64,000 nucleotides of DNA from Raillietiella orientalis (lineage: Eukaryota). The DNA lies in contig JAYWIR010000035.1 of the NCBI GenBank assembly GCA_036172245.1, forward strand, positions 2,170,001 through 2,234,000, read 5' to 3'. Of the stretch, positions 1-64,000 are shown in pieces. The number at the start of each line of letters is the position of its first letter. Position 1 is the stretch's first letter. The notes under the pieces were generated by a model. That model worked only from the letters and a program-made list of their open reading frames with translations. It was not told where the DNA came from and did not search any database. Position numbers and translations under genes: made by a program.

Positions 1-1558
1 GGAGAAGGTGGGGGAATGTTTCCTTTTCCCCACACCGGTCACAATTGGGATCCACAGCCCCCCGGGTGGTGTGGTGCAGGCGTGCTTTGAATGGTAATCC
101 CCAGAGTACCACAAGCAACGCCACATCCTGCCATTTCAGGGGGAGGGATGCACTGTTCCAGGACGCTGGGGGCCACTTCATCTCCTCCGGAGACAGTCCG
201 AGTAGCTCGCCCCAGCGTCGAATTCCGTTGGGCGGGACATTCGGCGTCGCAGCGTCAGCTAGCTAACGAGATGTCCACGCCTTTATCGATTGTGTCCTTC
301 CGTTTACGGTGCAGGACACGGTCCATTTCCCCAGCTCCCTACTGTCCCTGGCACTGATGAGAAAGGGCAGCACTGTGGCAAGGGGGGTTATCAAAGCCCA
401 CATAAGCTTGTCGTGGGACTGCACGATCTCCTGCAGCGCACAGCGGGCATGCCTTTTCAGGCAAGTATTCTTTGTGCCAGCCGGTACGTAGATCTTTTCC
501 CAGGTGGAGACCGACTCGTGCAACCAGGCAGAGTAGTTCCATGGGAGGCAGGAGATCCAGGCGTTCTCCCGAACCGCAACGAAGATGCGTCGCAGCATAG
601 AGCCACAGTGTGCTCTTCTGCAGACGCGCGCAGACAGAAACGACAAAAGTCTGCCGGATCCGCAGGTTCGTTGGGCCAGGAGGCGTGCTGGAACGCACCA
701 AGGCGTGTCCCACAATTCGGCCGCGAGGGCGAGAGTCCTGAATTGGAGTTGCAGTTCCATGCGCTGCAACGTAAGTACGCCAAGTTCTCCGTCCTTACGT
801 GGAGCGCACAAGTCTTTGAGCCTCACACGGGACCTCCCTTTGCCCCAAAGGACTGTCCTCAGGACGCCCGCTGCTCTTTTCCGAACAAAATGAGGGGCGG
901 GGCACAAAAAGTAGGGGGAGAAGAAGGGGGGCCGCAAACGCGTTCCACACCTCGGCACGTTCCTGCAAGTGGAACTTGCTTTCCTGGAACGGACCGATCG
1001 CCAACGCTGCCTCTTGGAGACGGTCGGACCAGGCTTCTGCTGCGCAGAAGTCCCCCAACGGAACGCCAAGGTACTTGAAGCACCTGCCCGTGGGGATCCC
1101 CAAGCGGATCCAGTCCGACCGTCCAGCCCACGCCGAGCCAACACAAGCCATCGACGACTTCGCCCTGTTCACCTCCAGGCCCGTCCCGCGGCGCAGCAAC
1201 TGGAAGAATTCCTCGAGCGCACTCGCCGGGGTGGACCCGGGAAGCAGCAGCAGAAGATCGTCTGCATAGGCCGACACGGCAGGCGTGCCGGCACACGAGC
1301 TCGGCAGAGTTGCCAGTCACCCTGTATGCCCTCAGCACCAACTCGAAGTAGATGCTGAAGAGCAAGGGGCTCAGGCTGTCACCCTGCCGGATGCCGCAGC
1401 GCACTGGCACGCCGTACACGTGCCGGCCGCTGAAACCAATATTTATGTACGCGTTGCGCCAGCACGAGCGCAGGTAATACCGGAGCACGGACGGCAAACC
1501 CATGCGTTCCAGGAGCTCCAGAAGGAGATCCTGGTCGACGCAGTCGAAGGCCTTGTGC
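1..1558 (-). mobile_element. Tx1/L1-clade LINE subfamily C, 3' part of ORF2 (RT + C-terminal zinc finger), frameshifted; interrupted by element A
   Basis: Motifs GIRQGDSLSPLLF, YADD and KYLG spread over several minus-strand frames; the RT breaks at VDL|HKAFD and resumes at 12986. Confidence 0.9.
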
Positions 1559-1651
1559 GCTCTAGGGCGGACGTGTTTTCTCGGTGCTCCTCGTGCCAGG
1601 AAGTCTCCCCCAGTGCAAGCGTCGTGTGGTTCGGTGGTCGATCAGGCAGCG

Positions 1652-3325
1652 ATGCCTGACGCGACCACCAGGGATGGCCAGGGGGCAGCGACAACGCCGC
1701 CCCCAGAGGCGATGGAGAGCCAGGGGGCGGCGGCAACGTCGCCCCCAGAGGCGATGGAGGTGGGGGCATCCGCCCCCACAGAATCGGTCCCCGCTGCAGC
1801 GCGGGCGTGGAGCGCCGTTATGTCGGCGCCATCGCCTGCAGCCGCGGCGGAATTGTCGGCCTATGTAGAGGAGGGGTACAACCCCTCATTGTTCTACAAG
1901 GTAGGCAATTTATATTCTTTAGAGAGCGCGCGCGCTTTCTCGAAGGGCATGCGCGCTCTCGATGTGAAAGAGAAGGAGCTCAGCGCTATGACCATCCGCA
2001 GCGGGGGTCTGCACGTTGAGGTCATCTGCAAACATGCAGAGCTGTCCCAACGACTGCTTAAAACCCCCGTTGTGATGGGGACGCGCAGGCTCCTCCCCAC
2101 TACGGCGGACCGCAGCATGGTGGTCCACCTGTTAGGCGTCACCGCGCGAATGCGCAAAGAACAGGTACGCGCCCCTTTGGAACAGTTCGGAACGGTCCAC
2201 GCGCAGTGGACGAAAGTAAGTCCTTTCGAGGACTACACGGGGCTGCAACACGGCCTCACTGCTGCGCGCGTGACCGTTCGGGAGGGCTGCACTCTTCCCC
2301 ACAAACTGGTGGTCGAAGGCGAAACCGTCGACCTCTGGTATGTGGGGAAGCCGAAATAGAGTGGCTTCTGCAATACGTCGGGCCACCTCAAAAACAGGTG
2401 TCCCAACGTGCAGTGCCAAGTATGCGGCACAATGGGCCACACGAGGGAGGTGTGCCCAAAAGCAGCAGTGCGGGTGGTTTCCAAGAGAAACCTTAAAAAA
2501 CGCGCCCGGCTTCTGCAGAAAAGGCTGGCGGCGAAAGCTGCCGCGAAGGCTGTGCCACCCGCGCCCAAGACCCAGGCCGCACCCGAGACCCCGGCGACCA
2601 ACGCCGAAAAAGTTGAGGGAGCCGGCCAGGAGACTGGGTGGCAAGTGGCAACGGACAAAAAATCAAAGGAGAGGAGGATGGAAAAGAAAATCGCCTACCA
2701 ACAGAAGAAGAAAGAGCAGGGTAGCGCGATAATTAAAGAGTGCAGCGTCGTTGTCGAACGGGTTCTCGATGTTGCCGAACGCTGCCGGAAAGAACTCGCC
2801 GCTACCGACGACCTCCCCTCTGTTGACACAGTCAACAGCGAGGGGAGCGAGCCGGCGGCGGCGTCCGTCATCGACACCACCATCGATGACGTAGCCTTCG
2901 CGCGAGCCGCGGAGGAGCTGGCAGCTTCGTTGCAGCCAGAACCCGCCAAGGCTGGCAAGAATTCTGTAAGGCGTCCGGTCTCCCCTCAGGAGTCCCCCAA
3001 TTCCGACCCCGAGGTGGAGGCCGGAAGCGCAGCCTCCGTTTCCACGGAACCGCGTAAGAAGGCTGGACGTAAGTCCAGAAAGCCAAGGAAGCTCGTCTCC
3101 CCCGTCGAAGGGGAAGAGATGGCTTTCGCAAGCGAGGGTGCCATGAGCGTGGGAAACTCTCGGGACTCGTCGCCCGAGAGACTCCCACGCGCGGACACGG
3201 AGGGGATGGAGGGGATGGAGGCCGAACAGGTGCCTCAGGTGCCTGAGAAGGCCGAAACCCCCATGGACATCCCGCCCGCCTCGCAAGAGGAGGGCTCCCC
3301 CACACCTTAATCTTCCCAGCAGTAA
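1652..3325 (+). pseudogene. ORF1 (gag-like, zinc knuckles) of A, premature stop at 2357-2359
   Basis: LWYVGKPK followed by CX2CX4HX4C (CQVCGTMGHTREVC) and a low-complexity acidic tail. Confidence 0.85.
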
Positions 3326-4782
3326 TGCCGGGAATTTCCTCCCGCCGTCGTCTGCGCATCGCCGTTTGGAACGTGAACGGCATGACAGACGCCGGCAGGA
3401 GACGAGACATGGCCGCCCTTCTGGAGTCCTACGACCTTGCGCTGCTGCAGGAGATCCACGTGATCTTTGCAGAACAAGCGCAAGAGATCGAACGGATCTC
3501 CGGAGGGCGGCTATGGTACAGGTGTGGGAGAGCGAAAAGTTGCGGTGTCGCCTACCTGCTTCGGCCAGCCGTCGAGGCCGCGGCTCGGGGCGTGCGGTTC
3601 GACGATCACGGTCGTGTCGGCCAGCTGACTCTCAGGTGGTCCGACTCGATCGATCTGATCGTCACGAACGTGTACGCACCGAGCGGCAAGGACCTGATGA
3701 ACAGGAGGGCGAGGAAAGAGTTTTTCCTTGCCCTCCGGCGAGACTGGCTGACCGAAGCAGGCGTGCGGAATGCCCATCTGGTTGCAGGCGATTTCGACGT
3801 TCGCCTGAAACCAGATGGGCAGAATCCCGAGCGTGACCTGGTCAACGAGGTGTGCATGGCGGTGCACACCTGTAATTTGTTGGCCAGTGCACCGGGGATG
3901 GAAGACAGCATTGACCACGTGTTTCTTGACGAGCACCTGTGCCCTCGCGTGGGCAGGCGCGGCAAGTTACCGTGCGAGCTGTCCGACCATCGCCCGCTAT
4001 CCTCGAGATCCATCCGCGCGACAGGGGCCCCCCCTCGTCAGCGTGGCGTCTCCCAGGGGACTGGCTGAAGCTCCCGGACGCGGCGGAACATCTCCGCACG
4101 TTCATACGGAGCTTAAGGCTGCGGACACTCCAGGATTGGGACCGCTTCAAGCGGTCGGTCCAGGAGTTCTGCGACCAGTTCCCTCTGCACCGCCTACCTA
4201 CGGGTTTTTGGACCGGGATCCGTAACGAACGAGCCTACCTGCAGGCCCGTCGTTACGCCAGGACCCCCGACATCCGCAGGCTGGCGGAATACAAAGCGGG
4301 AGCCGAGAGGCAAGCCTGGTAGTCCGGATCGGCCAGCTTACTGGACGATCAGGGCCAGGAGCACTCGGCACCTGTCCAAATCCGCGGCCTGCTGCGGAGT
4401 TACTACTCCTCCCTGTATGCCAGGGCACCTCCGGAGAGGAACGTCTCACGACTCCTGCTTCCGGAAGGCGCTCCAGCGATCGGGGAGGAGCAGAGAAAGA
4501 CCCTCGACGAGCCTTTCACGATTGACGAGATCCTCTCGGCCATCGGAAAACTCAAGAGGCGAAAGGCTCCAGGGGAGGACGGCCTGCCCGCGGAGTTTTA
4601 TCAAACTTTCGCGGCTGAGCTTACCCCCCTGGTACAGCAACTCCCCTTGCTGATACGCGAAACAGGTGACGTTCCCGCCTTGTTTCGTTCGGCAAAGTTG
4701 CGGCTCCTACCTAAGGGAGATCTGAGGAGCATGAACAACTGGCGTCCCATCACAATAGTGAATGCGGACGCCAAGTTGCTGG
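3325..4782 (+). pseudogene. ORF2 N-terminal half of A (APE endonuclease, start of RT)
   Basis: WNVNG, LQE, NVYAP, GDF, IDHVF and SDH motifs, then KAPGEDG and NWRPIT; frameshift and stop present. Confidence 0.9.
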
Positions 4783-4988
4783 TTGCCACCCGGTCACGCC
4801 GGGACGTTTATTAAAAATTCTCTTTGATTCGTGGTACGAGGCCCCACTACGGCCAACTGAACTGGACCTGCGGGGTCGCCGGTACGCAGACAGGCACGAC
4901 TCTCCTCGGCAGCGGAAGGGGGTGGGGGAAAAAACAAAAAGAAAAATAAAACATAAAAACAAAAAGATTTGGGAGGGTTGTGGAGGGA

Positions 4989-7900
4989 TCACTGACCACT
5001 GGGAGGAGGGTCCATCCTTGGCAGGATGCCCTCGAGGTCCGTCCGTATAATTCCCAGTTGGGGCCATCTGGTCACATTCCGCAGGTAGCGGACTGCAAGT
5101 ACGACGGCATCCCTGTCGTGGCTCGGTCTTCTGACGTTGCTCCAGCACGTCACAATCCCGCGTACGCAGCAAAGTGCAGCCAGGGTAGCGGCTGGACGCA
5201 GGGCATCATGCACGAACAGAAGCCGAAAAACGTCTCTGGACTGGCTGCCCTCCTGGATCCGTAGGGAGGCACGAAGACGTTTTCACAGGGGTCGGAGGGC
5301 AGCACAATCAACAAGGAGGTGGGGGAGGGTTTCCCGTTCCCCACACCTGATGCAGGTAGGATCTACTCGACCCCTGGTCCAGTGGTGGCGGCGTGCGTTG
5401 CAAGGTAGACCCCAATGCAACAACAGAAGCGCCGACTCCTGCCACTTTAGGGGGAGGATCCTAGAACCAATTAATACCGGGGACCACTTCAGGGCATCCG
5501 TCTGGATGCCGAGTAGCTCACCCCATCTCTGAAGTCCTCTCGGCTAGACAGTAGGTCTAATGGCGTCCGCCAGTTCACCCGTGGACCAGCCGTTGATTAA
5601 CTTCTCCTTGCCTGCGATGCGGCAGGAGACTTGCCACCTAGGCTTGCGGCTGCTGGAGAGCGCCCTCCTCAGGAAGGGCATCGCCGTTGCTAGGGGGGTT
5701 GTCTCTGCCCACGTGCTTCTCGCGGGACACTGGAGTATCTTCCGCAGAGTGCTGCGGGAATAGGCGCCGCGTCGCAGGCAGTTCCACATCTCTTCATTCT
5801 TTTCATTAATCTTCGCCCACGTGCCAGCTGTCTCCTCCAGCCATGCGGAGGAGTTGGCGGGGCTGCATACCATCCAGCCGTTTTCCTTCGCCAGAGTTGC
5901 CATGCGTCCCAGGAGAAGTCCGCATCTCTTGATCTTCTTGCCACGGCAGAGAAGATAGGACGCGAGACCCTCCGTCCCGGATACACGGCTGGCAAGGAGT
6001 CGGGCCGGAACGCACCAAGAAGTGCTCCATAACTTCGCTGCGATGGCGAAGTTTCGCCACCGCAGCTGAATCTCTACTCGCTCCATCGTCAAGAGGCCGA
6101 GACCGCCATCCCGACGTGGAGCACACAAGTCCTTCAACGGGACTCGGGGCCTCCCTCTTCCCCAAAGGGCAATTCTCAGGAGGTCCTTCGTCCGTTTTTT
6201 CAACTCTCTGGGGACGGGGCAAACAAAAAGCAGGGGGCGGAGGATAGGAGCCGCGAACGCGTTCCATACCGCGGCCCGTTCCGGAAGGAGAAACTTGTCT
6301 TCCAGGAACGGGCCGATCGCCGTTTCCACTTTTTGGAGGCAGCCGGACCACGCTTCCGCAGGGGAGTAGTCCCCCAACGGCACACCAAGGTACTTCAAGC
6401 ACCTCGCCGTGGGGATCCCCAAGCGGACCCAGTCCTGCTGCCCAGCCCACGCCGCACCGACTGGAACCACCGTCGACTTCGCCCTGTTCACCGTAAGTCC
6501 GGTCCCGCGGCTAAGCAGATCGAAGAAATCCCCGACCGCCTTCGCCGGGGTGGACATCGGCAACAGAAGCAAAAGATCGTCGGCGTATGCTGCTACGGCG
6601 GGCGTGCCGGGGCACGAGCTCGGCAAGGGTGCCAAAGTCACCCTGTACGCTCTCAGCACCAACTCAAAGTAGGTGCTAAAGAGCAGGGGACTGAGGCTGT
6701 CGCCCTGCCGTATGCCCCGCCGTACCGGCACGCCGTACGCCATTTGACCTCTGAAAGAGATATTGATCAGCGCGCTGCGCCAGCAAGAGCGCAGGTAGGT
6801 CAGTAGGGAGGGAGGGAAGCCCATGCGTCCCAGGAGCTCCAGCAGGAGATCCTGGTCCACGCAGTCAAACGCTTTGTGCAGATCGACTGCGATCGCTAGG
6901 GCTCCCTTCCCCACCTGGGAGTCCTGTCCCTGCCCGGCTGACGCCCCCAAAGCGGGGCTGCCAATCCTTCCCTCTTCCTTTTCTTGACTACTCTGCACAT
7001 GAAACCATGTGCTCGCGAAGAAGAGGTTGGCCTCCATACTTCGCCCGGGAACAGCGTAAGTCTGCTCCGGGCTAATTATGGAATTGGCCACCTGCCCCAG
7101 ACGCGAAGCCCACAGTCCGGCGATCAACTTGGCGTCCGTGTTCACAATTGTGATCGGACGCCAGTTGCTGAGTTTCCTGAGGTCTCCTCCTTTCGGAAGG
7201 AGCCTCACTCTGGCTGACCGAAACGAGGCGGGTACATCGCCTTCATCTCGGATCAGCCTTGTCAACTCAAGCACCAGGGGTGCCAACTCTGCCGCGAAAC
7301 ATTGAAAAAACTCCGCAGGCAGGCCGTCCTCCCCTGGTGCTTTCCGCCTCTTGAGCCTTTTGATACCGGCGAGAATTTCGCCGGTGGTAAAAGGCTCGTC
7401 GAGGCTTTCCTTCTCCTCCTCCCCTATTGCCGGGGCACCGTTCGGAAGCATGCGCCGAGAGGCATCTTGGTCCGGGGGCGCCCTGGCGTAAAGGGAGGAA
7501 TAAAAACGCCGCACGAGGTGCCGTATTCTAGCCGGAGCCGAGTGCTCCCGGCCCTGGTCGTCCAGCAAGCTGGCCGATCCGGATTGCCAGGCTAGACGTT
7601 CGGCCCCGGCTCGGTATTCTGCCAGGCGAAGGACATTGGGAGTCCTCTCGTACCGGCGGGCGTGTAAATAGGCCCTATGGTTACGAGCCCCCTCCCCAAA
7701 TCCGGGGGGCAGGCGGTGCAGAGGGAACTCCTCGCAGAACTCGCGGACCGAGGCCTTCAAGAGGTCCCAATGTTTGAGACTGCGGAGGGTGACGCCTCTC
7801 AGGAATTCGCGAAGGTGTTCCTTCGCACCTGAGAGTCTCGTCCAGTCCCCAGGCAGACGCGACGCCCTGGATGGGGGCCCTTGTCGCGCGGGCATACCTC

Positions 7901-8574
7901 GAATATCAACCGGAAATGGTCAGGCAGCTCCGACGCAACTTTCCCCCGTTTGCCGACCCGTGAACACAGGTCGACATCCAGGAAGACGTGGTCGATGCTG
8001 CTGACCATTTCCGAAAGATCCCCTAACAAGTTGCGCGTGCGCATTGCGGCGCACAACTCGTTAGCCGTCCGTTCCTGTGCGTGTGGCTCACCTGATAGCA
8101 GGCGGAGATTAAAGTCTCCCGCTATCAGGTGAGCCACGCGCACGTTCGCTTCCACCAGCCAGTCGCGCTTTAGGGTTTCCAGGAACGCCTTACGTTCCTG
8201 GTATTGGTAGGACCGCTCGGAGCGTACACATTTGTTACGACGAGGTCGATCGTGTCGGACCACCTGAGAATCAGCTGGCCGACACGACCGGCTTCGTCGA
8301 AGCGCACGCCCTTCACGGCTGCGTCGACTGCCGGCTTCATAAAAAACGCGACGCCGCAGGTGTATCGGGTGCCGCATTGCCACATCAACCGTCCCCCTGC
8401 GATCCTTTCGATCTCCTGGGCGTTCTCCGCGGTGATCACGTGGATCTCCTGCAGGAGTGCCAGGTCGAAGTCACGCAGGGTGTCGGCCGTGTCCCGTCTG
8501 TTGCCGTCGTCGCGCAGCCCGTTCACGTTCCAGCAGGCCACGCGTAATCGACGGCGACAGGCGAGCCCAGGTGT
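4989..8574 (-). pseudogene. ORF2 of B1 (APE-RT-CCHC), frameshifted
   Basis: 783-aa open stretch 5544-7895 with the RT motifs; endonuclease split over frames 8170-8712 and 7799-8383; stop at 5544. Confidence 0.9.
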
Positions 8575-10546
8575 TACTCCTGGGAATGTGGCAATGGGGC
8601 TCCCGCCACCTGGTCGGGCGGGACGGATGGAGGCATGGGGGCACCGCCCAGCGGTTCTCCCACCTCCATGGGGGCCGATTCCTCGGCGGACCGCAACGGT
8701 TGAATGGAGCATGCTTCACGCACCTGCTTCCCCTCTTCCATGCGGGCCGATTCCTCGACTGCGATGGACGGCAGGGGGGAGCGGTTCTCAGCTGTCTGCT
8801 CCCCCTCTTCCATGACCATCTTCTCCGCAGGCTTCACCTGTGGAAGGGGGAGGCAATTCCCTACCTGCTCCCCCTCCTCCATGGGGGTGGCCGGCTGCTC
8901 GGTGGCGAAGGGTGGGAAAATTCCTACCTCCATTCCCACGCTGCCGGCTTCCCCCTCGGCTGCCGGTGCGTCCCCCTCGCTCTTCGTCGGGATGCGCCTC
9001 TTGGGATTCTTGGACTTCCGTCCAGTCTTCTTCGGAGGCGCCTCCGCGGAGGAGGACGCACTTCCGGCATCCGGTTCGTGGTCACCTGTCCGAGGTGCCT
9101 TGCTCGCGGCCGGCCTTCGCAAGGCCTTTCGCGCGCCGTTCTCACGCTGCGCGAGTTCGGCCGCGAGCTCTTCCGCCTCCTGCTGGAAGGCGGCGTCCTC
9201 GATTGCGGCGAGCGCGTCGCTCGGCTCCCCCTCTGTTTGCACAGAGGTTTCGCCTTTTTCGATCGCGGCTTCGGCGTCAACGAGGCGGGAGATATCTCCC
9301 CCGGTGGAGGTCTCGGGGAGCTCCACTCGCTCCAAAGCGACCGAACATTCGCGGAGCAACGCGCGGCGTTGTCTCCTATTTAAAGAAGATGTCGCGGGTT
9401 CCGCTGTCGGTTCTTCGGTATTCTTTAATTTTTTACTTTTAGGCTTCGCCTTATGCCAGCCCTCGCTCTCTCCAGCGTCGTCGGGAGTACCCTCGACCGG
9501 CGTTTGCTGTTCGGGCTCGGGCTCCGCCTGTGGGTTCCGCCTCAGGGGTGCCTTCGCAGGGTTTTCCGTAGCCTCCGAGCGTTTCCCTTTGGCCTTTTTC
9601 AAGGCAGCGGGAGCCGGGGGTTCGCGCTTCGGGCACACTTTGCGGAGGTGGCCCTTCTCTCCACAGTGGAAACACTGGATGTGAGGGCACCGCTTTTTCA
9701 GGTGCCCTGTGGCATCACAGTGTCCACAGTACTTGGGCTTGCCCACGTACCAGACGTCGACGGTCTCGTTGCCGACGTCTAGTTTGTGGGGTATCCCACC
9801 GTTTTCGTGGACGGTTACACGCGCACCAGCCATGCCACTAAACAGTCTTCCGTAACTCTGGAAGACGTTGGGCTTGGGCCATAGCGCGTGAACCGTTCCG
9901 TATTTTCCGAGTTCCTCCTGCACGTCGGCTTTCGACATGCGGAGGGTGACTCCCGTGAGGTGCGTCACCACGGAGCGATCCTCCGTTACCGGGAAAATCT
10001 TTCGGCCTTCCAGTGTGATTGGCGTATTCAGGAGGTGTTGAGCAAGGCTTGCATTTCTGCAAGTCAGCTCCACCCGCTGACCACCACTCAACATGGAAAG
10101 ACCTTCCAGGTCTTCCTCTTTTACGTTCAACCGCTGCAACTCCCTTTCGAAGTTGCGAGCGGTGTTCCCGACAAACAGATTGCCTACCTTGTATATCAGG
10201 GACGGCTTGTATCCCTGCTCCAGGTAGGCTTTCTGCTCGGCGAAGGCTGCAGGAGATGGGGCTGCAGCCACTGAACTCCAGGTCTTCGGCGACGCCGAAG
10301 ACGCATTCGAGGGGGCAGGTGCCCCCTTTTTCAAGGGGGCGGTTGCACCCTGTTCCAGCGAGCTTTTGCCCCCTTTTTCAAGGGGGCCTTTGCCCTCGCC
10401 TCCGAGGCGGCGGTTGCCCCCTTTTTCAGGGGTGCGGCTGCCGTCGCTTCCGTGGGGGCGGTTGCCCCCACCTCCGTGGGTTGGGGAGAGGAGGAAGCCT
10501 CTCCCCCTCCTATATCCATCGCGGTGTCCTCAGGCATTTCTGCCAT
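8574..10546 (-). pseudogene. ORF1 of B1
   Basis: Two CCHC knuckles (CGHCDATGHLKKRC, CFHCGEKGHLRKVC); ATG at 10546 with a frameshift in the N-terminal repeat tract. Confidence 0.85.
10318..10470. repeat. Short coding tandem repeat (GCGGTTGCCCCCTTTTTCAAGGGG; ATAPLKKG-like) in the B1 ORF1 N-terminus
   Basis: Several imperfect units; a longer version lies at 41433-41610 in B2. Confidence 0.75.
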
Positions 10547-10634
10547 TGGACACCGCAGATGCTTCACACACAAACAGTACCGAAAAAGAACGCTTTACAC
10601 CAGGCGCGGAGGAGCGCTACAAGAACACGTCCGC

Positions 10635-12767: not shown

Positions 12768-12985
12768 TCCCTTCCCTTACCCTCCCAACTTTTCTTTTGT
12801 TTCTTGTTTTGTTTTTTGTTTTTCCCCCTTCCCCCTGCTGCCGTGGTGGACGGTACCGGTCTGCGAACCGGTGACCCGGCAGGCTTTGTGTTTCTTCGTG
12901 CGTGGCTGGAGCAATGGTCCAGCCACCGCACGTCTTTGTAAAAGTTTATTTTACAATAAACGCCCCGGCGAAATCCGGGTGAAAA

Positions 12986-17630: not shown

Positions 17631-17653
17631 AACAATGGAAGGGGTGTGGCTGG

Positions 17654-18130
17654 TTATCACTCGGGTGCGCTGGGGCGTTTATTAAAAACTATCCGGGAAC
17701 AGAGTTCCTGGACAAAGGGGAAAACAAGATACGAAGTTGGTGGGATCCCCGACACGCAGGTCGGTATGGCGAAAGTCCGGAACGGTAGGGAGGGGACCAC
17801 AAATAGACTACTATAAAATATAAAAAGACAAATATGGAGGGCAGAGGACAGGGGTCTTTGGTTCGGCCGTTCCTTCCTTTCAGAACCGGCGATGGATGCC
17901 GGCGATCTCTCTCACGCTCTCTGGTAGGTGGGGCCACTCGGCAGCCGACGACATGTTTGTGCTGGCTAATCCGGTGGGCTGACGAACGATGGCCAGCTTC
18001 TCCAACTCTCGGTGGGCCTTGTCGATGGCGCGGGTGCAACACAAGGTTGCAACGATAGCACCTAAAGACAGGCCGCCTGGCGTGAAGAAGCGGGGCATCA
18101 AGTCCCTCGCGGTGTCCGCCTGGTGCAGGC
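17654..18130 (-). mobile_element. 3' terminal fragment of a further subfamily (G; F/H-like)
   Basis: Terminus AATAAACGCCCCAGCGCACCCGAGTGATAA; C-terminal peptide RFFTPGGLSLGA...IAGIHRRF. Confidence 0.8.
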
Positions 18131-20616: not shown

Positions 20617-20619
20617 GTG

Positions 20620-52230: not shown

Positions 52231-52319
52231 CGGACACCAACGATGTTCCACAGAAAACAACACAAGAAAAAACCGCTTCCTGTCGACTCACTCGGGAGCG
52301 AAGGAAAAACACGTCCAGT

Positions 52320-55263
52320 CGCCAAGGGATTCGGCTAGGGTGTCAGGAACGAGCGGGCGTACCTTCAGGCCCGCCGTTATTCCAGGCGTCCCGACGTCCG
52401 TCACCTGGCTGAATTCAAGGCTGAGGCGGAGAGGCAGGCCTGGCAGTCAGGCTCGACCTGCTTGCTGGACCATCAGGGCCAAGAACGGTCCAGCCCAGCC
52501 TAGGTAAGCCGCATAGTGCGGGAGTTTTATTCCTCCTTATACGCGCCACTCACACCTGAGCGCCATTTCGCGCAGTGCCTACTGCCGGATGGTGCTCCTG
52601 CGCTCGGAGAGAAAGTTTGTTCCAGATTGTCAGGACCCTTTACGATCACAGAGATCATCTTCGCCATCAGTAAATTAAAAGCAAGGAAGGCACCAGGGGA
52701 GGACGGCCTGCCCGCGAAGTTTTACAAATACTTCGCGTTAGAGCTGGCCCCCCTGGTGCTCAGGTTAAGTCAGATGATCCGCGAACGCGGCGAAGTTCTC
52801 GCCTCGTTCCGGTTAGCAAAAGTACGTCTCCTGCCGAAGTCAGGAGACCTACGCAACATTGGCAACTGGCGTCATATCACAGTAGTGAATGCGGCCGCAA
52901 AGTTGTATGCCAAGTTGTATGCTGAGCGTTTGGGGCGAGTGGCCGCTTCCGTGGTGAGTCCCGAGCAGACCTACGCTGTTCCCGGACGAACCATGGAGGC
53001 CAACCTGCTCCTCGCCAGCTCATGGTGGCAGTTGCGACAACGCGTTGCTCAGGATGGTCAAGGAAGCCTCGCTCTCCCCTCTGACCAAGAAGATCGGATA
53101 GAGGGTGGGATGGACTCGGCGGGATCCCTTGCCGTCGCGGTCGATTTGCGCAAAGCATTCGACTGCGTCGACCAGGATCTCCTTCTGGAGCTCCTGGAAC
53201 GCATGGGTTTCCCGGCCGTGCTCCAGTCCTACCTGCGCTCCTGCTGGCGCAACGAGTCTATTAATATTTGTTTCAGCGGCCGGGACGTGTACGGCGTGCC
53301 AGTGCGCCGCGGCATACGGCAGGGTGACAGCCTGAGTCCCTTGCTCTTCAGCATCTACTTCGAGTTGGTGCTGAAGGCATACAGGGTAACTCTGGCAACT
53401 CTGCCGAGCTCGTGTGCCGGCACGCCTGCCGTGTCGGCCTATGCAGACGATCTTCTGCTGCTGCTTCCCGGGTCCACCCCGGCGAGTGCGCTCGAGGAAT
53501 TCTTCCAGTTGCTGCGCCGCGGGACGGGCCTGGAGGTGAACAGGGCGAAGTCGTCGATGGCTTGTGTTGGCTCGGCGTGGGCTGGACGGTCGGACTGGAT
53601 CCGCTTGGGGATCCCCACGGGCAGGTGCTTCAAGTACCTTGGCGTTCCGTTGGGGGACTTCTGCGCAGCAGAAGCCTGGTCCGACCGCCTCCAAAAGGCA
53701 GCGTTGGCGATCGGTCCGTTCCAGGAAAGCAAGTTCTACTTGCAGGAACGGTCCGCGGTGTGGAACGCGTTTGCGGCCCCCCTCGTTTGCCCCCTACTTT
53801 TTGTGTGCTCCGCTTCTTATTTTGTCCGAAAAAGAGCAGCGGGCCTCCTGAGGACAGTCCTTCGGGGCAAAGGGAGGTCCCGTTTGAGACTCAAAGTCTT
53901 GTGCGCTTCACGTAAGGACGGTGGACTTGGCCTACTTACGCTGGAGCGCATGGAAGTACAATTACAGTTGAGAACGCTCGCCCTTGCAGCGGAACTGTGG
54001 GACACGCCCTGGTGCGTTCCAGCACGCCTTCTGGCCCAACGTGCCTCTGGATATGGCGGACTCTCGTGGTTTCTCTGGGCTCGCGACCGCAGACAAGCGC
54101 ATTGCGGCTTTCACCTGCGTCGCATGGCCGTTGTGGCTCGGAAGAACGCATGGATCTCCTGCCTTCCTGGGAACCACTCGGCATGGCTGCACGAGTCAGT
54201 CTCCTCTTGGAAAAAGATCCACGTACCGGCGGGTACAAAGAACACTTGCCTGAAAAGGCACGCCCGCTGGACGCTGCAGGAAATCGTGCAATCCCACGAT
54301 CAGTTCCTGTGGGCCTTTATAACCCCCCTTGCTCCAGTGGTGCCCTTTTTAGTAAACGCCAGGAACAGCATAGAGAAGGGAAAATGGACAGTGTCCTGCA
54401 CCATAGATGGCAGGACACGAAAGATCGAGGCGTGGACATCTCGGCAGCTTACGGACGCTGCGACGCCGAGTGTCCCGCCTAACGGAATTCGACGCTGAAG
54501 CGAGCAGCTCGGATTATCTTTGGAGGAGATGAAGTGGCCCCCAGCGTCCTGGAACAGTGTATCCCTCTCCTTGAAATGGCAGGAGGTGGCGTTGCTGGTT
54601 GTACACTGGGGTCTACCCTACAAAGCATGCCTCTCTCACTGCACACGGGGGGCTGTGGATGCCAATTGCGACCGGTGCGGAGAAAAAGAGACATTTCCTC
54701 ACCTTCTTATTGAGTGCAATGCTCTCCACCCTCTCTGGGATCGGCTTGCAACGATCCTAAACATTGGCGGAGGTGGCCCTAAAGAAATTTTTAGGCGCCT
54801 CTTCTTGCATGACGCCTTGCCCCACCGGCCTCAGTAGCAGTTCTTTGCTGCCTCAGAGGGGTCGTGGCGGCTTGGAACGCCACAAGAAGAAGGCGCCAAG
54901 TTAGCGGCAATGCTACATATTGGACCCGCCTCTTTGTGAGGAACATTTGCAGGTGGCGACACCTGGGTGAACGACGGACGCAGCTTGTGAAGATCCTGAA
55001 CAGGATCTAGAGGACCTTTCGGCGCGCAATGTGATTCCCCTCCCGGACCCCCCCTATCCCCCAAACATAAGTGTCCTCCCAAATTTTTACATTTTCTCTT
55101 TTGCTTTGTTTTTTATTCCCGTTCCCGCGCGCTTGAAGGACCTCGCCGGTTGAGAACCGGCAAGAAGCAGGCTGCCTTGTGGTGAACCATCAGGCTCTCC
55201 ACACGAAAATAACATGTATTTTTATTTTTTCAAATAAATGCCCCGGCATATCCGGGTGAAAAC
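52320..55263 (+). mobile_element. Subfamily C, 3' portion beginning at the LPPGFG target site
   Basis: RT ORF 52516-54498; terminus AATAAATGCCCCGGCATATCCGGGTGAAAA. Confidence 0.9.
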
Positions 55264-56707
55264 GCAGTGACGTCACCATCAGCTGACGACAACGCCGTTC
55301 CGGCATTGCCAGCAAAGGACGTCTGCGCGCCGATCGATGAAGCCGCCCCTGTCGCTCCTGCGCAAAGCGTCTGTGCGGAAAGCGAGGAGGCGGCGCGTAT
55401 AACGGACGCGACCTTCGCGCAGGCCGCGGAAGAGCTGGCAGCCATGTTACGGCAGCCTGCCAAGGCCGAGAAGAAGGCCTTGAGACGACCGGCAACGGTG
55501 AAGGGCCCGGAAAATTCCGAGTCCGAAACCGAAGCCGGTTGTTCTACTTCCGCAGCAGTGCCGAAGAGGAAGGCTGGCTAGAAGACCGGTTGCCCGACAC
55601 GTGTCGCCCCTCCGCAGGTGGGGAAGGCCATGTCCTCGGGCACGGAGGAGGAAGCAATGTGCGTCGCGCCATGCGACCCCTCTCTGATCCGTGTCTCGGA
55701 AGCCAGCGCGATGGATGTCGCTGTGGAAAACGTGCTCCCGTGTGAGCAGCCGACCGCCGTCACGGCCGTCAAAGAGCCGCCTCCCGCAAAGGCGAAGGAC
55801 GCCTCCACCCCACAATAAATACACCAATGCGTGGGCTCGCCTTCTGCCGCCGCTTGCGCATTACCTGTTGGAACGTCAACGGGTTCCGCGACGACGGTAA
55901 GAGGCGAGACGTAGCCGCCATACTGCGAGACTTCGACCTGGTGCTTCTGCAAGAGGCGCACATTCTCAAAGCAGGAAAAGTCCAGGAAATCGAAAGAATC
56001 GCGGAAGGGCGGCTACTGTGGAGGAACGGAAACGACCGCTCCTGGGGAGTGGCCTTTATACTTAAGCCAACCGTCGACAACGCATTGCGCAGCGTGAGGT
56101 TCGGTGGGGAAGGTAGAGTTGGGCAGCTTGCGTTCAAGTGGTCCGACTCGATCGACCTCAGTCACGAACCTGTACTCTCCGGTATGCAACCACAGGGCCG
56201 AGGAACGCACTGGGTTCCTCGAATCCCTGCGGCGAGACTCGTTGGCTGAAGCAAGCGTACGCCGGGCGCACCTCATTGCGGGCGACTTCAATTTCCGCCT
56301 GCTGGCGGGTGCGCCGTGCATTTGAGCACGACTGGTCAACGAGTTGTGCGCAGCCATCAATGCGCGCAACTTGTTGGCCGGTGATGCCGGGAGAGATCGG
56401 AACATCGCTCACATGTTGCTCGAAAACCACCTGTGCACGCGGGTGGGAACTCGTGGAACGCTCCCGGCATAGCTGTCCGACCATCCACGGCTCGTGTTCG
56501 AGTTACATCCGCGAAATAAGGGCCCTCCCCTGAAAACGTGGCGCCTACCAGGGGACTAATTGCGCATCGCAGGAGCGGAGGAACATCTACACGCCTTCCT
56601 GCGAGGATTCCATCCTGAGACGCTCGCGGACAGGGACGGAATGAAGTGGTCACTCTGCGAGTCTTGCGACCAGTTTCCCCTGGAACGTCTTCCGCCGGAC
56701 TTCGGAG
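55264..56707 (+). mobile_element. Subfamily C, 5'-truncated tandem copy (ORF1 end + APE), cut at LPPDFG by D2
   Basis: Inverted homologue of about 13810-15150. Confidence 0.88.
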
Positions 56708-59095
56708 TTATCACCCGGGTACGCCCGGGGAGTTTATTTGTAGACTCTACATGCGTGGTACGATGCCCCACCACGGCAGTAAACACAGGACCTGTCGAGA
56801 CACCGGGACGCAGCCCGGAGTGGCACTCCTCGACAGCGAAAGGGGATGGGGATAAGACAAAAAGAAAAATAAAAAAAAAGAAACAAACAAAAAGAAGTTG
56901 GAGGACAGGGAAGGGATCACTGGTCGCTGTGGGGAGGGCCCATCCGTTGAACGAAGTCTTCGAGGGCTGTCTGCATATTCCCCAGTTGGGGCCATCCGAA
57001 AGCTCTCCGCAAGAAGCGTTATGCATACGGGATGACATCCCTTGCCAGAGGACCCACTCCTTCGTTGGTGGCGTCTCTCCATGCCGCCACGATGCCACGG
57101 ACGCAGCACAAGGCGGCGATGGCTGCGGCTGGCTGCAGTGCGTCCTTCACGAAGAGGGGTCGAAGAATGTCTCTGGGGGTGCTGCCCGTAGGAAGCCCGA
57201 GGGTCGTCCCGAACCGTTCCCAAAGGGGTTGGAGGGCAGCACAATCCAGAATAAGGTGGGGGAGCGACTCCCGCTCCCCGCACCTGGCACACGCAGGATC
57301 CACAGCTCCCCTCGTCCAGTGGAAGCGGCGCACGTTGCAGGGTAGACCCCAGTGCAACAAAAGCAACGCCGACTCTTGCCACTTGAAAAACCGGATACGG
57401 GATTCCATAATAACCGGGGGCCACTTCAGCTCATCCCTGGGGATAGCGAGCAGCTCGCCCCATCTTGCTAATCCTCGCGGCTGGACGCTCGATGTCGTGG
57501 CGTCGGCCAGTTCTCCTGTTGTCCAGCCGCTGATCAACTTCTCCCGTCCCTCGATGCAGCAGGAGACTTGCCACCTTCGCGTCCGGGTGCTGTGAAGTGC
57601 CCTTCTTAGGAAGGGTAGCGCCGTAGCTAGGCAGGTCGTCTCTGCCCACGTGCATCTTGCTGGACTCTCCAGGAGATTCCGCAGCGTGCAGCGGGCGTAG
57701 GGGCTGCATCGGAGACGATTCCACGTCTCGTGGCTTCTCTGGTTGACTACTGCCCACGTTCCAATATTCTCCTCCAGCCAGGCGGGGGAGTTGGCGGGGC
57801 AGCAAACCATCCAGCTGTTCTCCTTGGCCAATGTTGCCATGCGCCCGAGCAGTAGGCCGCATCTTCGCATCTTCCGGCCACGGCTCAGAAGAAAAGACGC
57901 GAGTCCATCGCACCGGGACACACGGCTGGCCAGGAGGCGGGCCGGAGTGCACCAAGGGGTGCTCCACATCTTCGCTGCGATGGCGAGGGTTCGCCACCGC
58001 AGCTGCTTTTCCACGCGCTCCAGCGTCAGGAGGCCAAGACCGCCGTCCCGACGCGGAGCGCACAAGTCCTTCAGTGGGACTCGGGGCCTCCCCTTGCCCC
58101 AAAGGGCGATACGGAGGAGGTCCTTCGTCCTCTTCTTGGATTCCACGGTGGGGGGGCAAACAAAAAGCAAGGGGCGGAGGATGGGGGCCGCGAAGGCGTT
58201 CCAAAGAGCGGAAACCGCCCGGAAACAGCATAAGTCTGCTCCGGGCTAATTACGGATTCTGCCACCTGCCCCAGACGCGAAGCCCATAGCCCTGCTATCA
58301 ACTTGGCGTCCGTATTCACGATCGTGATCGGACGCCAGTTCTTTAAATCCCTGAGGTCTACCCCTTTCGGAAGGAGCCTCACTCTGGCTGACCGTTACGA
58401 GGCGGGAACATCGCCTTTGTCTCGGATCAGCCTGTTCAACTTAAGCAACAGGGGTGCCAGCTCTTCCGCGAAGCTCTGAAAGAACTCCGCGGGCAAGCCC
58501 TCTTTACCTGAAGCTTTACGCCTCTTGAGCCATTTGATACCGGCGAGAATTTCGCCGGTGGTAAAATTCTCGTCGAGGCTTTCCATCTTCTCCTCCCCTA
58601 TTGCCTGGGCGCCATCCGGAAGGAAGCTCCGAGAGGCGTCTCGATCCGGGGGCTCCCTGGCGTAAAGGGAGGAATAGAAACTCCGCACGAGATGCCGTAC
58701 CGACGCCGGGGACGAACATTCCCGGCACTGGTCGTCCAGCAAGCTGGCCGACCCGTATTGCCAGGTTTGGCGTTTGGCCCCGGCACGGTACTCGGCCAGG
58801 CGACAAACATTAGGGGTTCTCTCGTACCTACGAGCCTGTAAATAGGCCCGATGGTTGCGAGCACCCTCGCCGAATCCGGGGGGCAGGCGATCCAGGGGGA
58901 ACTGCTCACAGAACTCGCGGACCGATTCCTTAAAAAGGTCCCAGTCCTGGAGATTCCGGAGCGTGACACCTCTCAGGTATTTGCGAAGGTATTCCTTCGC
59001 ACCTGAGAGTCGCGTCCAGTCCCCCGGCAGACGCCAATCCCTGGATGGCGGTCCCTTGTCACGAGGCCGCATCTCGAAAATTAACCGGGAATGGT
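56708..59095 (-). mobile_element. Subfamily D copy 2, RT core deleted near 58205-58225, 5' part lost
   Basis: Homologous to 29012-32027; the A' target site is empty (about 58951-58964). Confidence 0.88.
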
Positions 59096-59953
59096 CCGAC
59101 GTCGCGGCACAATGAGAGGTTACTGTCAAGATCTCCAGCAGGGCGAAGAAAATCGAGGATTGGTGAACGGGTCAGCTCACCAACGCTGCGACCCCGAGGA
59201 CCACACCAAATGTTCTCTTGCGCTTGGGAGAGCTACTGGATGTTCCAGAGGAACATCTCGAGTGGCCCCCGGTGCTCATGGACTCGCGCATCGTCCCCAT
59301 GAAGTGGCAACAGTCGGCACTCCTGGTGTTGCATTCGTGCCTCCCCTGCAACGCCCGCCGACACCACTGAACGTGGGGGGGAGTCAACCCAAATTGTGTC
59401 AGGTGCAGGGAGAGTTAATACTTCCCTCACCTGTTAGTGGATTGTGTTGCCCTCCGTCCCTTGTGGGAACGCTTTGCTGCAGCCCTGGGGATCCCCATAG
59501 GCAACCCCAGAGACGCTTTGCGCCCCCTTTTTGTCCGTGACACCCTGCAGACCTGTGCTGCCCACGCGGGTTCGTCGTGGGATCAAGCAATGCGACGGGA
59601 GGGTCCAGCGACAGGGACGCAACCGTTTACGCCGTCCCTTACCTGAGGATGCCGAAGCGATAGCCCCATCTGGAATCCAGCATTCAGCGAAAGCTTGCCG
59701 GCATCCTTCAGAGGATGACGGACCCTCCCAGCAGACAATCATTTCTTCCCGCTCCCTCATTGGTTTTGTTTATTTCTTTATTTTCTTTTTCTTTGATTTT
59801 TTGTATCCTCTGCTTCCGAGGTCGACCGCGCCAGTCTGTGCACCGGTAGCCCGGCAGGCTGAATGTTTCCAGGGCGTGGAGGGACTACTGGTCCAGTCAT
59901 ACATTATATAAGTTTATTTGAAAAAATAAACGTCCCTGCGTACCAAGTTTACA
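59096..59953 (+). mobile_element. 3' fragment of an A'-type copy
   Basis: Homologous to 43274-43500 + 49013-49670 with the E site empty; decayed terminal hairpin. Confidence 0.85.
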
Positions 59954-59970
59954 GAGAGACTCTGGAGCGT

Positions 59971-61107
59971 CGAGCGAACGTGTCTTTTCGCTGCTCCTGA
60001 GTTTCGCTTTCCGGTGGTGTTTTGTGTGGTGTGGGTGGAGGATTAGGCAGCAAAGCCTGATTACACCACCGGTGAGGATCCGGAGGCGTTGACCCCATTG
60101 CCCTTGGAGGAGATGGAAGTTGGGGCTTCCGCCCCCACTGATGCGCCCCCGGCCCTACCCAGGGCTTGGAACGCCGTGGCTGCCGCGACCACGCCGGCGG
60201 CTGTGGCGGAGATCAGGACCTACCTGGAAGAGGGGTACAACCCACCCCTCCTATACAAGGAAGGCGCTTTATATTCTCCCGAGAACGCGCGCGCCTTCCC
60301 TCAGGTGATGCGCGTTCTCAGCGTACAAAAACAAGAGCTTCTGGCTATGTCCGTCAGAAGCGGGGGTCAATTTGTGGAAGTTATTTGCAAGGAGGCAACT
60401 CTTGCGCAGAGACTTCTGCGAACCCCCGTAATTATGGGAAGCCGGAGGCTTCTCTCAATTACTGAAGACCGGTTGGTGATCATTCACCTGACCGCTATCA
60501 CGTTCCGGATGACGAAGGAGGCCGTCCGGAACGAATTAAAAAAATTTGCAACTGTCCACACGCTGTGCGGTAAGCCTAGTCCTTTTGTTGATTACGACGG
60601 GGTGCTTGGCGGGCTGGGTGCAGGGCGAGTGACGGTTCGCGAAGGATGTGAGTTTGCCCACAAACTCACCGTCAACGGTGAATCCGTTGACGTGAGGTAC
60701 GTTGAGAAACCCAAGTTTTGCGGCTGCTGCAGCAGCTTTGGTCACATGAAAATGAGGTGTCCGAGCGTGCAGTGCCAGCAATGCAAACAAGCGGGACACA
60801 CCCGTCTGGTGTGCCCCCAAAACACAGTGCGCGTCGTGTCCGCAAAAAACTTGGGAAAGCGGGCGGCTAAAAAAAGAAAGAAGCTGGGAGCTCGTGCTGC
60901 TGCTAAGGAGATCACCTCCGCCATCAAGGCGAAGGCCAGCCCCGAGACCTTGGCGAAGAACGCCGAAAAGGTCGAGGCCGAGGGTCAAGAGCCAGGGTGG
61001 CAAAAGGTCGACCCCAAGAAAAACTCCCCTAAGAAGGGAAAGAACGTTGCGAAACGGAGCGAAACCGCTCCGCGCCGCGAAAAAACCAAAAGCTGCTGCG
61101 TCGTCGT
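59971..61107 (+). mobile_element. 5' part (ORF1) of another A'-type copy, cut by H
   Basis: Homologous to 32028-33180. Confidence 0.88.
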
Positions 61108-64000
61108 TTATTACCCGGTTCCGCTGGGACGTTTATTATAATATCAACTGAGAACTGTGTTTCCAGGCAACGGGAACAGAAAATGGGGAGTAGACTTCCC
61201 GGAATTCAGTCCGGGCACACTGAGAGTTCGGAACGGGAGGGGGTGGGACAATAAATAAATAAACTGGGTGGGAGGGCGGGGACAGGGGTATACAGTCTAA
61301 CCGTTCCTATTCTCAGAACCGGCGGTGAATGCCACCGATCTCCGTCCTCACTTCTGCTCCAAGATGTGGGCACCCGGCAGCTATTTGCAGGCTGCAGGCT
61401 GCGGTGTCGGGGACCGATGTTGGGACTGCTCGCATCTGCAATACGTGGCGGACCCTGACAATATCGCGGACGCAGCAGATGATTGCGACGACCGCTCCAA
61501 GAGTAAGACCGCCACGCGTGTAGAAGCGGCGCATCCAATCCAGTGCGGTGTGTCCAGGGTGCAGGAGCGCTGAAGACAGACGCTGCCACAGCTCCTGGAG
61601 GGCACCGCACTCAAACAGCAAATGCGGAAGCGATTCTACCGCTCCGCCTTTGGCAGAGTTCGGGGACGCAACTCCCCCGGAAATCAGGTGCGCCCGCTGG
61701 TTGCTGTACAAACCTTAATGCACCAGCAGAAAAGCGTCCTGCTTCCACCGAAGGGGGAAGAGAGTCGCGTCCAAACACGCAGAAGGGACCTCGAGTTCAT
61801 CGGTGGGCACCCCGAGGAGCTCACTCCACCGGAGAAGCCCCTTTGCAAGAATGCGAGGTGTGGAAGCGTCAGCCACTTCGCAAGTCCGCCAGCCGACCAG
61901 CAGTCGGGTTTCGCCTGCGATTTCGCAAGTGATCTCCCACCTCGCCGGCAGGTCACTGTCATCTCGCACCATCAGTGCACACAGTGCTTCGGCGAGTGGA
62001 GTAGTGGCTAGGCGTGTCCACTGGTCCTGGTCTTCCAGCACCTCCCCCACTGGACAGTATGGGGAAAGTTTCACGCAAAGGAGTTCCAAACGGGACACAT
62101 CCTGTTGCGCTGCCCAGGACGATAAGGCTTCCTGCCTCCAGGCGTTGAAGTTCGTCTGCCGACAAGAGATCCACTCATGCTTTCCCAGAAGCGTGGCGAG
62201 CTGCTTCAAAGGGAAGCCGAATCCTCTCTGGGCGCGCTCCGTACGCAGATGCAACGAACGTAGTCCGTCACCACCCGTGCTGCGCTGCAGCAGCAGCCGC
62301 GCTGGAGCACACCAGGGAGTAGTCCAGAGCTGCGCACAAAGTGCCAGCATGCGGAACTGCACTAGCAGTCCGATCCGCTCCATCGTCAGGATGCCCAATC
62401 CTGCATCCCGCCGAGGAGCCGCCAAGTCCTTCAGGCGTATACTGGACCTCGCCGGTCCCCACAGAACGTTACGCAACAGGCGTTGCGCCCGGCGCTTAGC
62501 CGAGTAGGGAGGGGGACAAACAAAAAAGAGGGGACGGAGGAAGGAAGCAACGAAAATGTTCCACACGAAGGCCCGTTCCGACAGGAGAAACCTGCCGCCT
62601 TGGAACGGGCCCAGAGCAGTCTCAGCCTTGTGAAGGCAGTCCGACCACGCTTCTGCTGGACAGAAGGCGCCCAAGGGAACGCCGAGGTACTTCAAGCACC
62701 TGCCCGTGGGGATCCCCAGGCGGATCTAGTCGGACTGCCCCTCCCACGTAGAGCCAACCGGTACAACGGTTGATTCCGTCCTGTTCACGCTCAGGCCCGC
62801 TGCCAGACGAATGAGCTCGAAGTAGTCCTCGACCCTGGACGCCTGGGTGGACATGGGTAGCAGCAGGAGAAGGTCGTCAGCATAGGCGGCCACAGCCGGT
62901 GTTCCCGGGCAGGAGCTCGGCAGGTTGGCCAGCGTCAGCCTGTACGCCCTCAGCACCAACTCAAAGAAGATGCTGAAGAGCAGTGGGCTAAAGCTGTCTC
63001 CCTGCCTGATACCCCGCCGTATGAGAACACCGTACACGTGACGCCCGCTGAAAGAGATACAGCATAACGCGTGGCGCCAGCAGGAGCGCAAGTAGGCGAT
63101 GAGGTGCGTCGGGAGGCCTAGACGTCCCAGAAGCTCCAGAAGGAGGTCCTGGTTTACGCTGTCGAACGCTTTGCAGAGATCGACTGCGACCGCTAAGGCT
63201 CCCGGCGTTGCATCGTGCCTTGAACACCGCCGCTTTCCTTTGGTAGCGGCGATTTCGTCTGCCTGGCTCTGCTGCGCCACGCGCTGCTGCATCTCGAACC
63301 ATGTTCGCGCGAAGAAGAAATTCGCGTCCATGGACCGCCCCGGAACAGCATACGTCTGCTCCGGACTTACCAAGGACTCTGCGATTCTCCCCAGGCGCGC
63401 GACCCATAGCCTGAAGAGCAACTTGACGTCCGAATTCACCAATGTGAACGGACGCCAGTTGCTAAGGTGGCGCAAATCACCGCCTTTCGGCAGGAGGCGC
63501 ACCTTTGCTGAGCGGAAAGAAACGGGAACATCTCCCGTCTCACGCATCAGCGAGGAAAGGCTTAGCACCAGGGGGACGAGCTCCGCCGCGAAGCACTGAA
63601 AGAACTCCGCAGGCAGGCCATCCTCCCCAGGCGCCTCACGCCTCTTCAGGCCCGCTATGGCAGAAGATACTTCTTCCGTCGTGAAGGGCCAATCCAATCT
63701 GGCGCGTTTCTCCTCGTCGATAGCAGGGTTGCCCGTCGGAAGAAGCAGCTCGGAGAGACTGCGTTCCGTGGGCTCCTCCGCGTACAACGAGGAGTAGTAG
63801 CGCTTGACTACGCGGTGTGCTTCGGCTGCAGCCGAGCATTCGAGGCCAGCGTCATCGAGCAGACAAGCCGCTCCAGACTGCCAAACCTGGCGCTCGGCCC
63901 TGGCCTTATACTCCGCTAGACGCCGGACGTCCGGGCATCGTGAAAAGGTACGCGCCTGCAGATAAGGTCTGCTGTTCGCGACACCCTCTCCGAAGCTGCT
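61108..64000 (-). mobile_element. Subfamily H (F-related), 3' part, running off the window
   Basis: Terminus AATAAACGTCCCAGCGGAACCGGGTAATAA; RT ORFs 62726-63787 and 61715-62695. Confidence 0.9.

Follow-up and report, generated by a model that had tools for sequence, protein, structure and literature searches.

Long interspersed nuclear elements (LINEs) of the Zepp and ZeppL type are already known to nest into existing copies, with one cluster per chromosome (available sections of PMC3446292; PMC8226300; PMC9940879; PMC11005252; bioRxiv 2025.03.28.645958). Other LINEs choose a strict target. Tx1 inserts into the DNA transposon Tx1d (PMC6719617), and target specificities are known for the Tx1 and R1 clades (PMC4640811), as the accessible parts of these two papers report. 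Likewise, tandem copies of R1 are separated by 33 nt of ribosomal DNA (rDNA), according to an excerpt of PMC5932611. Here we describe a window of 64,000 nucleotides from Raillietiella orientalis (assembly GCA_036172245.1, contig JAYWIR010000035.1, positions 2,170,001 to 2,234,000 of the forward strand). This window is likely to be a self-nesting array of eight LINE lineages of the L1 superfamily, most of them inserting at one defined site in another lineage.

The window shares features with each of these systems. Zepp (Chlorella/Coccomyxa) and ZeppL-1_cRei (Chlamydomonas) are, like the elements of the window, GC-rich L1-type LINEs in nested clusters, which in Zepp/ZeppL lie at putative centromeres (sections of PMC3446292, PMC8226300). 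The GC content is 61% in Coccomyxa Zepp (same sections) and about 60% across the window, except for a low-GC stretch at about 19.5-22.3 kb; the likeness is one of behaviour and GC content only. The Xenopus elements Tx1L and Tx2L, together with Keno and Mutsu, are also LINEs of the apurinic/apyrimidinic endonuclease (APE) type with strict targets, a transposon target included (parts of PMC6719617, PMC4640811). R1 and R2 use a fixed site in a conserved multicopy sequence, and their double insertions lead to tandems split by the duplicated target, as seen here.

Domains of LINEs are present on both strands. The long open frames matched the Pfam families for APE (PF03372), reverse transcriptase (RT, PF00078), the CCHC knuckle (PF00098) and, weakly, zf-RVT (PF13966). 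More precisely, the APE match lies in the N-terminal part of open reading frame 2 (ORF2) of lineage E (E-value 2e-13), and RT is present in 11 of the 21 ORFs scanned. The knuckle is above the Pfam cut-off in ORF1 of B1, B2 and D1. The C-terminal PF13966 matches have E-values of 3e-4 to 8e-3, but their 17-22 bits are below the Pfam cut-off of 27.5. Among solved structures (PDB), the best match of an APE-RT frame is human LINE-1 ORF2p (E-value 6e-36), and R2 reaches only about 1e-4. A protein search with ORF2 of B2 gave seven matches. The best has 55% identity, and the only named one is a plant L1-like protein (29% identity). An atlas look-up of a window protein led to generic APE-RT clusters. 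Judged by these similarities, the window elements are APE-type LINEs with L1-superfamily likeness.

We placed the pieces by translated similarity, using the full-length E element (43501-49012, minus strand) as a ruler, and by self-BLAST. The window consists of about 25 LINE pieces, leaving aside the low-GC stretch and an insert of 677 bp. Eight lineages were distinguished: A, A', B, C, D, E, F and H (the A' copies are A2, A3 and A4). The RT-core alignment of 11 copies groups them into the clades (B,D), (A,A'), E and (C,(F,H)). Nucleotide identity in the RT core is 62-84% across lineages and 87-99% inside them. Lineage C comprises two subfamilies that are 81.6% alike.

We estimated dN/dS between lineages with reading frames taken from protein-level matches. 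The values are 0.18-0.41 for ORF1, APE, RT and the C-terminal part. The lineages thus drew apart while they were functional, and their differences are not the decay of dead copies. A value of 1.07 for APE was discarded as spurious, since it arose when the longest open frame served as the reading frame. The comparison of APE with RT makes no case for positive selection on APE, whose dN/dS is only slightly higher (0.41 vs 0.27; 0.32 vs 0.23-0.30).

All lineages have a common 3' terminus. It consists of an AATAAA-like box together with a short GC hairpin and a few A-rich bases, and it lacks a poly(A) tail. A scan of the window with the 3' motif found 13 termini, and a C-type variant at 15155 is the fourteenth. 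At the other end, a 10-nt 5' motif is common to the full-length-type starts of A1, B1, F1, A2, B2 and A4, with near variants in D1, D' and E. In the 3' untranslated region (UTR) of E, an A-rich run on the plus strand (43535-43573; T-rich on the element strand) stands just upstream of the terminal hairpin; it is not a terminal poly(A).

The junctions were read to the nucleotide. All junction results come from this one window, with one to three events per host-guest pair. An earlier sequence-only reading had named seven host-guest pairs, duplications of 9-15 bp at the insertions, and nesting of at least four levels with D at a C target site. The seven pairs were borne out: every break lies at the named peptide motif, and the homologous position is intact in other copies. 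The duplications were also found within the expected 9-15 bp, with empty sites as controls, apart from an imperfect one of about 10-16 bp for D1 in C. They are exact for B1 in A1 and B2 in A2 (13 bp each), for A2 in D1 (14 bp, empty site in D2), for F1 in D' (9 bp) and for the 677-bp insert in B2 (13 bp, empty site in B1). The duplication of A1 in C1 has 15 bp, 12 of them identical, with the empty site in C2. That of E in A2 has 12 bp (11/12 identical), and both A3 and A1 keep the empty site. For H in A4 we read the 3' junction only, and A2 shows the empty site. The nesting proved to have five levels, with C outermost (C > D1 > A2 > B2 > 677-bp insert). A further claim, that nearly every junction lies at a defined site, stands in part. 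Eight of the 14 LINE 3' termini are at four recurrent sites and three at single-event sites, while two are loosely placed and one is unexplained; the C ends, F3 and the 5' junction of A3 do not follow the claim.

Four sites were used repeatedly: B into A/A', A' into D, D into C, and F into D/B-like copies. B1 sits in A1 at the very codon where B2 sits in A2, and both have the same orientation. The VTLRNL site of D adjoins both ends of A2, the 3' end of A3 and the 5' end of A4. Next to the 16-bp D target between A3 and A4 stands CGA, and an identical CGA precedes A2. The LPPGFG site of C adjoins the 3' end of D2 (in C3), both ends of D1 and the 5' end of D'. Finally, the GDFN site of a D/B-like APE adjoins F1 at both ends, the 3' end of F2 and the 677-bp insert. 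Orientation is constant inside every recurrent pair. Guests are antisense to their hosts in 9 of the 11 oriented junction pairs, with F in D and C in C as the exceptions. Three tandem pairs are set apart by just 16-24 bp of target: A3/A4 (16), D'/D1 (22) and F1 with the low-GC+F2 unit (24). A target remnant as the only separation is what two insertions into one specific site leave behind, as described for R1 tandems (PMC5932611).

The alignment to human L1 ORF2p pairs IAGDFN with IMGDFN, LNADAKL with MNIDAKI, and VDLRKAFD with IDAEKAFD. Human LINE-1 ORF2p, the best structure match, thus aligns at the GDFN, N-DAK and D-KAFD motifs. Three of the targets are therefore found where the codons specify motifs that are conserved throughout the L1 superfamily. 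Sister lineages differ in target (A vs A', B vs D, F vs H). By eye, we saw no motif common to all targets and no microhomology between the 3' ends of the elements and their targets.

The repeated junctions might be copies of single events, if nested blocks had been copied by segmental duplication or unequal crossing-over. This is the least improbable of the rival explanations, and it is still very unlikely. It would account for the self-BLAST resemblance of 1760-12337 to 32194-43506 (about 87% overall), for the C copies that stand head to tail twice (13813-16940, 53469-56705), and for the neutral-looking differences between D1 and D2 and between C1 and C3. However, the 87% is an average of very unequal parts, because B1 and B2 are 98.6% identical in ORF2 and 92.8% in ORF1 plus the 5' region, against 75.5% (5' half) and 79.9% (3' part) for their hosts A1 and A2. 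These hosts sit in different elements at different sites, A1 in C at DL-KAFD and A2 in D at VTLRNL, each with its own host-specific duplication. The 13-bp B duplication differs between the loci at 3 of 13 positions and its copies are identical within each locus; therefore, no single ancestral event produced both. Furthermore, the dS between B1 and B2 is 0.68 in ORF1 (dN/dS 0.12) and 0.012 in RT, so they come from different source elements, probably recombinant. The two B insertions into A/A' are independent, and segmental duplication is already refuted for this pair. The sequence-only reading had itself named the origin of all same-site copies from one duplicated block as the danger to its claim. 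Host divergence and host-specific duplications exclude that origin for B into A; the case is weaker for D into C. Inside D, the two copies D1 and D2 are about 7% apart without any bias in codon position, a pattern that fits two insertions from one source as well as a duplication. Their 3' flanks, set against this 7%, differ at 4 of 16 positions, which speaks against copying. At the two C-C junctions, where each 3' end enters the ORF1 end of the next copy, the two sides are 93.8% vs 80.6% identical and the junctions lie 95 bp apart, which also speaks against copying.

A different explanation is that the lineages prefer the array as a region, through chromatin or a centromere-like niche, and insert roughly anywhere in it. 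On that view, chance or survivorship would account for the coincident sites. The loose placement of lineage C and of F3 fits such a preference, as does the description of Zepp/ZeppL as targeting existing copies and clustering (parts of PMC8226300, PMC3446292). Nevertheless, four lineages strike the same nucleotide in the same orientation two or three times each. With a target of about 5.5 kb and two orientations, simple arithmetic gives about 1 in 11,000 for one coincidence. The tandem pairs parted only by a target remnant speak against it as well, and we judge the regional explanation very unlikely too, slightly behind block duplication. Recombination, gene conversion or RNA-level template switching between homologous elements could also create junctions. 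One product of this kind is likely present (the low-GC segment with F2), and the 5' end of B has microhomology with the sequence beside its target. Yet the guests are complete elements with both termini conserved and exact duplications of 12-15 bp, sister copies hold the empty sites, and guests are mostly antisense to hosts, an arrangement that homologous exchange would not give. As a general origin of the junctions, this is more improbable still. The least probable of all is an assembly artefact of a highly repetitive region. The region consists of repeats throughout, and in one public run (X1) just 23% of the sampled words from 1559-11558 were present. Mis-joins, however, yield neither matched duplications round full-length elements nor duplication sequences specific to each host.

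Some observations weigh against site-specific insertion as a complete account. In the end of C ORF1, the C-lineage 3' ends at 15155 and 55262 take positions that differ by about 95 bp. Lineage C looks targeted regionally and not by nucleotide, or else its two subfamilies differ in site. F3 (17654-18139) adjoins G, a fragment of 5'UTR and ORF1, at neither the F nor the H site. A into C, E into A' and H into A' are single events each. B and D themselves contain a nearly identical version of the 13-bp B target, yet no insertion interrupts these copies; either recognition reaches past the duplication or the sample is too small. The near-neutral differences of D1/D2 and C1/C3 mean that unequal exchange could have multiplied some of the D-in-C and C-C junctions. 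Lastly, at least four joints in X1 set a LINE 3' end beside other internal LINE positions (50284, 63542, 63820, 55421), where the 3' end does not reveal the lineage. The truncated 5' end of A3 joins D2 at 132 bp beyond the VTLRNL site. This offset agrees with a first nick that is specific and a second break whose place varies.

The X1 joints come from matching the run to 44001-64000 at 85% likeness. This gave 531 short pieces, 257 of them less than 90% alike, and the joints given here are the best-supported ones. A C-type end appears at a third position, 55421, in one X1 contig, and several joints are mere switches between paralogues. The X1 joints neither support nor refute the sites of the window. 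We also scanned metagenomes with the 16-nt 3' motif, and the 118 loci obtained included no relative of these LINEs. CCGGG followed the motif in 2 of 119 matches, both chance-like in unrelated sequence. When the loci were compared with the window, blastn gave one match of 24 nt at one locus, and tblastx gave no match.

The evidence for site-specific mutual targeting is good for four of the pairs, and for the other three such targeting is plausible. In the proposed mechanism, each lineage would have a CCHC knuckle in its ORF1, and its ORF2 would code for APE, RT and a zinc-binding region at the C-terminus. Its endonuclease presumably makes a sequence-specific first-strand nick. For most lineages, target-primed reverse transcription would then take place at one defined coding-region sequence of another lineage, in fixed orientation and with a duplication of 9-15 bp. 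B would enter A and A' at the N-DAKL codons of RT, and A would enter C at the DL-KAFD codons in the RT motif A region. Likewise, A' would use VTLRNL in D, D would use LPPGFG in C, and E would use WQQSALL in A'. F would take the GDFN codons of APE in D/B-like copies, H a site in A' ORF1, and C would insert loosely into the end of C ORF1. Since each insertion duplicates the target, the same site could be struck again, giving tandem pairs with a target remnant. We infer that the array grows solely by this site-specific route. The sequence-only reading had gone further and proposed a radiation with partitioned target sites. Distinct lineages, purifying selection, defined positions and four sites hit repeatedly agree with that proposal; the regional placement of lineage C and the three single-event pairs do not carry it.

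The copies differ in relative age. The B copies differ by 1.4% and the D and C copies by 6-7% with a neutral-looking pattern, so the inner guest is younger than the outer hosts. ORF1 of B1 and B2 is far more diverged than ORF2, a contrast that points to modular recombination among B sublineages. A 24-bp tandem repeat lies close to the start of B ORF1 (10306-10480 and 41424-41633), with about seven copies in B1 and about nine in B2. The coordinates of all pieces are given in Table 1.

Table 1. Pieces of the window in order of position, with strand and remarks.
Feature	Position	Strand	Remarks
C1 3' part (RT to C-terminal region)	1-1558	-	cut by window start; ends at DL-KAFD site; duplication copy 1544-1558
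A1 5' part	1559-4782	+	8 extra nt, 5' motif 1567-1576, ORF1, APE, RT start; ends at NADAKL site
B1, full-length inside A1	4783-10636	-	13-bp duplication 4770-4782 / 10637-10649
A1 3' part	10637-12985	+	reaches 3' hairpin terminus
C1 5'-ward part (ORF1 end, APE, linker)	12986-15154	-	duplication copy 12986-13000; LPPGFG site intact
Cx, 5'-truncated C copy	15155-16940	-	3' end within ORF1 region of C1
G, 5'UTR + ORF1 fragment	16941-17653	-	weak likeness to F1 ORF1
F3, 5'-truncated F/H-like 3' fragment	17654-18139	-	away from GDFN site
D-like APE remnant	18140-18190	-	ends at GDFN site
F2, 3' 1.3 kb of F element	18191-19469	-	3' end at GDFN site
Low-GC foreign segment	19470-22306	-	joined to 5' side of F2
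24-bp D-like GDFN-site remnant	22307-22330	-	between low-GC segment and F1
F1, full-length inside D'	22331-28240	-	9-bp duplication 22322-22330 / 28243-28251
D', D copy with ORF1 deleted	28243-28989	-	cut at GDFN site by F1
22-bp C LPPGFG target remnant	28990-29011	+	between D' 5' end and D1 3' end
D1 3' part	29012-32027	-	ends at VTLRNL site; duplication copy 32014-32027
A2 (A') 5' part	32028-35213	+	5' motif 32031-32040
B2, full-length inside A2	35214-41803	-	13-bp duplication 35201-35213 / 41804-41816
677-bp hairpin-rich insert in B2 at GDFN site	38544-39220	.	13-bp duplication 38531-38543 / 39221-39233
A2 middle part (RT to WQQSALL site)	41804-43500	+	
E, full-length inside A2	43501-49012	-	12-bp duplication 43489-43500 / 49013-49024
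A2 3' end	49013-49673	+	
D1 5' part (APE, ORF1, 5'UTR)	49674-52316	-	
C2, LPPGFG site to 3' terminus	52317-55262	+	empty A-target site 53148-53162
C3, ORF1 end to LPPGFG site	55263-56707	+	
D2	56708-59096	-	3' end at C3 LPPGFG site; RT deletion ~58212; VTLRNL site intact
A3, 5'-truncated A' copy	59097-59954	+	
Spacer: 16-bp D VTLRNL target remnant + CGA	59955-59973	.	between A3 3' end and A4 5' end
A4, A' copy, 5' part	59974-61107	+	cut in ORF1 at SCCVVV site
H, sister lineage of F	61108-64000	-	3' end in A4 ORF1; continues past window end

Two D copies have lost internal parts. In D' (28243-28989) the 5'UTR and the first ORF1 codons run straight into the start of ORF2 (APE). In D2, another deletion has removed about 770 bp from inside the RT, at 58212. 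The junctions of G plus F3 (16941-18139) match none of the recurrent sites, and G may be the missing 5' part of the C lineage.

The low-GC segment (19470-22306) has 2.8 kb and about 45% GC, with no similarity to the rest of the window. It directly continues the F2 3' fragment on the 5' side, and its own open frames share that orientation. The whole low-GC+F2 unit is flanked by imperfect copies, of about 24 bp, of the F target. This arrangement fits a chimeric retrocopy, produced by a template switch from F RNA to a foreign transcript. A frame of 242 amino acids in the segment (20959-21687, minus strand) has the look of a Walker-type NTPase, with a weak PF00910 match (E-value 0.005, below the cut-off). 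It has a single database relative, at 39% identity.

The 677-bp insert is rich in GC hairpins and contains a 54-bp internal repeat (38804-38857 and 38916-38969, 91% identical). No LINE 3' motif and no tRNA were found in it, and an Rfam scan gave only one chance-level match. It lies at the GDFN site used by lineage F and may be a non-autonomous rider on F-type machinery.

A wider reading is tentative, and we hold it to be rather less probable than its opposite. The window would be a layered system of parasites on parasites. Each lineage would home, like a homing endonuclease, to the codons of a catalytic or otherwise conserved motif in another lineage (APE GDFN, RT N-DAK, RT D-KAFD), which the host cannot freely change. 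With its only targets inside other members, the community would be confined to a single array per chromosome and extend it. If true, this would give a concrete mechanism by which each chromosome keeps a single Zepp-type LINE cluster, possibly a centromeric one. The site-specific targeting itself would supply a nucleotide-level rule set behind the statement that Zepp-like elements target existing copies, and could explain self-contained, in-place growth of arrays. The window would be a natural case of retrotransposons specialised on each other's conserved coding motifs, with target switches between A and A', B and D, and F and H. Its related APE endonucleases with different long sites would be a useful panel for decoding APE specificity and for designing targeted integration.

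Compared with the known systems, the differences are as follows. In the sections that describe them, Zepp-type arrays are built of one family (a single ZeppL family in Chlamydomonas, PMC9940879), mostly as 5'-truncated 3' ends. In contrast, the window combines eight lineages with many full-length copies and a hairpin 3' end without poly(A), and the insertion sites are fixed nucleotides in other lineages. The targets of the Tx1 clade are a DNA transposon or small RNA genes and not sister LINE lineages, with no reciprocal hierarchy of several lineages. R1 and R2 target a host gene, the rDNA, whereas the targets of the window are coding motifs of other retrotransposons. The consensus that human L1 nicks, TTTT/AA, is loose, and L1 copies are dispersed genome-wide, whereas the window elements use long specific sites. 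Our literature search, which covered its sources in part and left the site detail of the original Zepp papers outside, returned no account in which several LINE lineages home, each to a fixed site in another lineage. The array is a variation on known site-specific LINEs and on Zepp-type nesting, and the fixed-site targeting among several lineages would be its new part.

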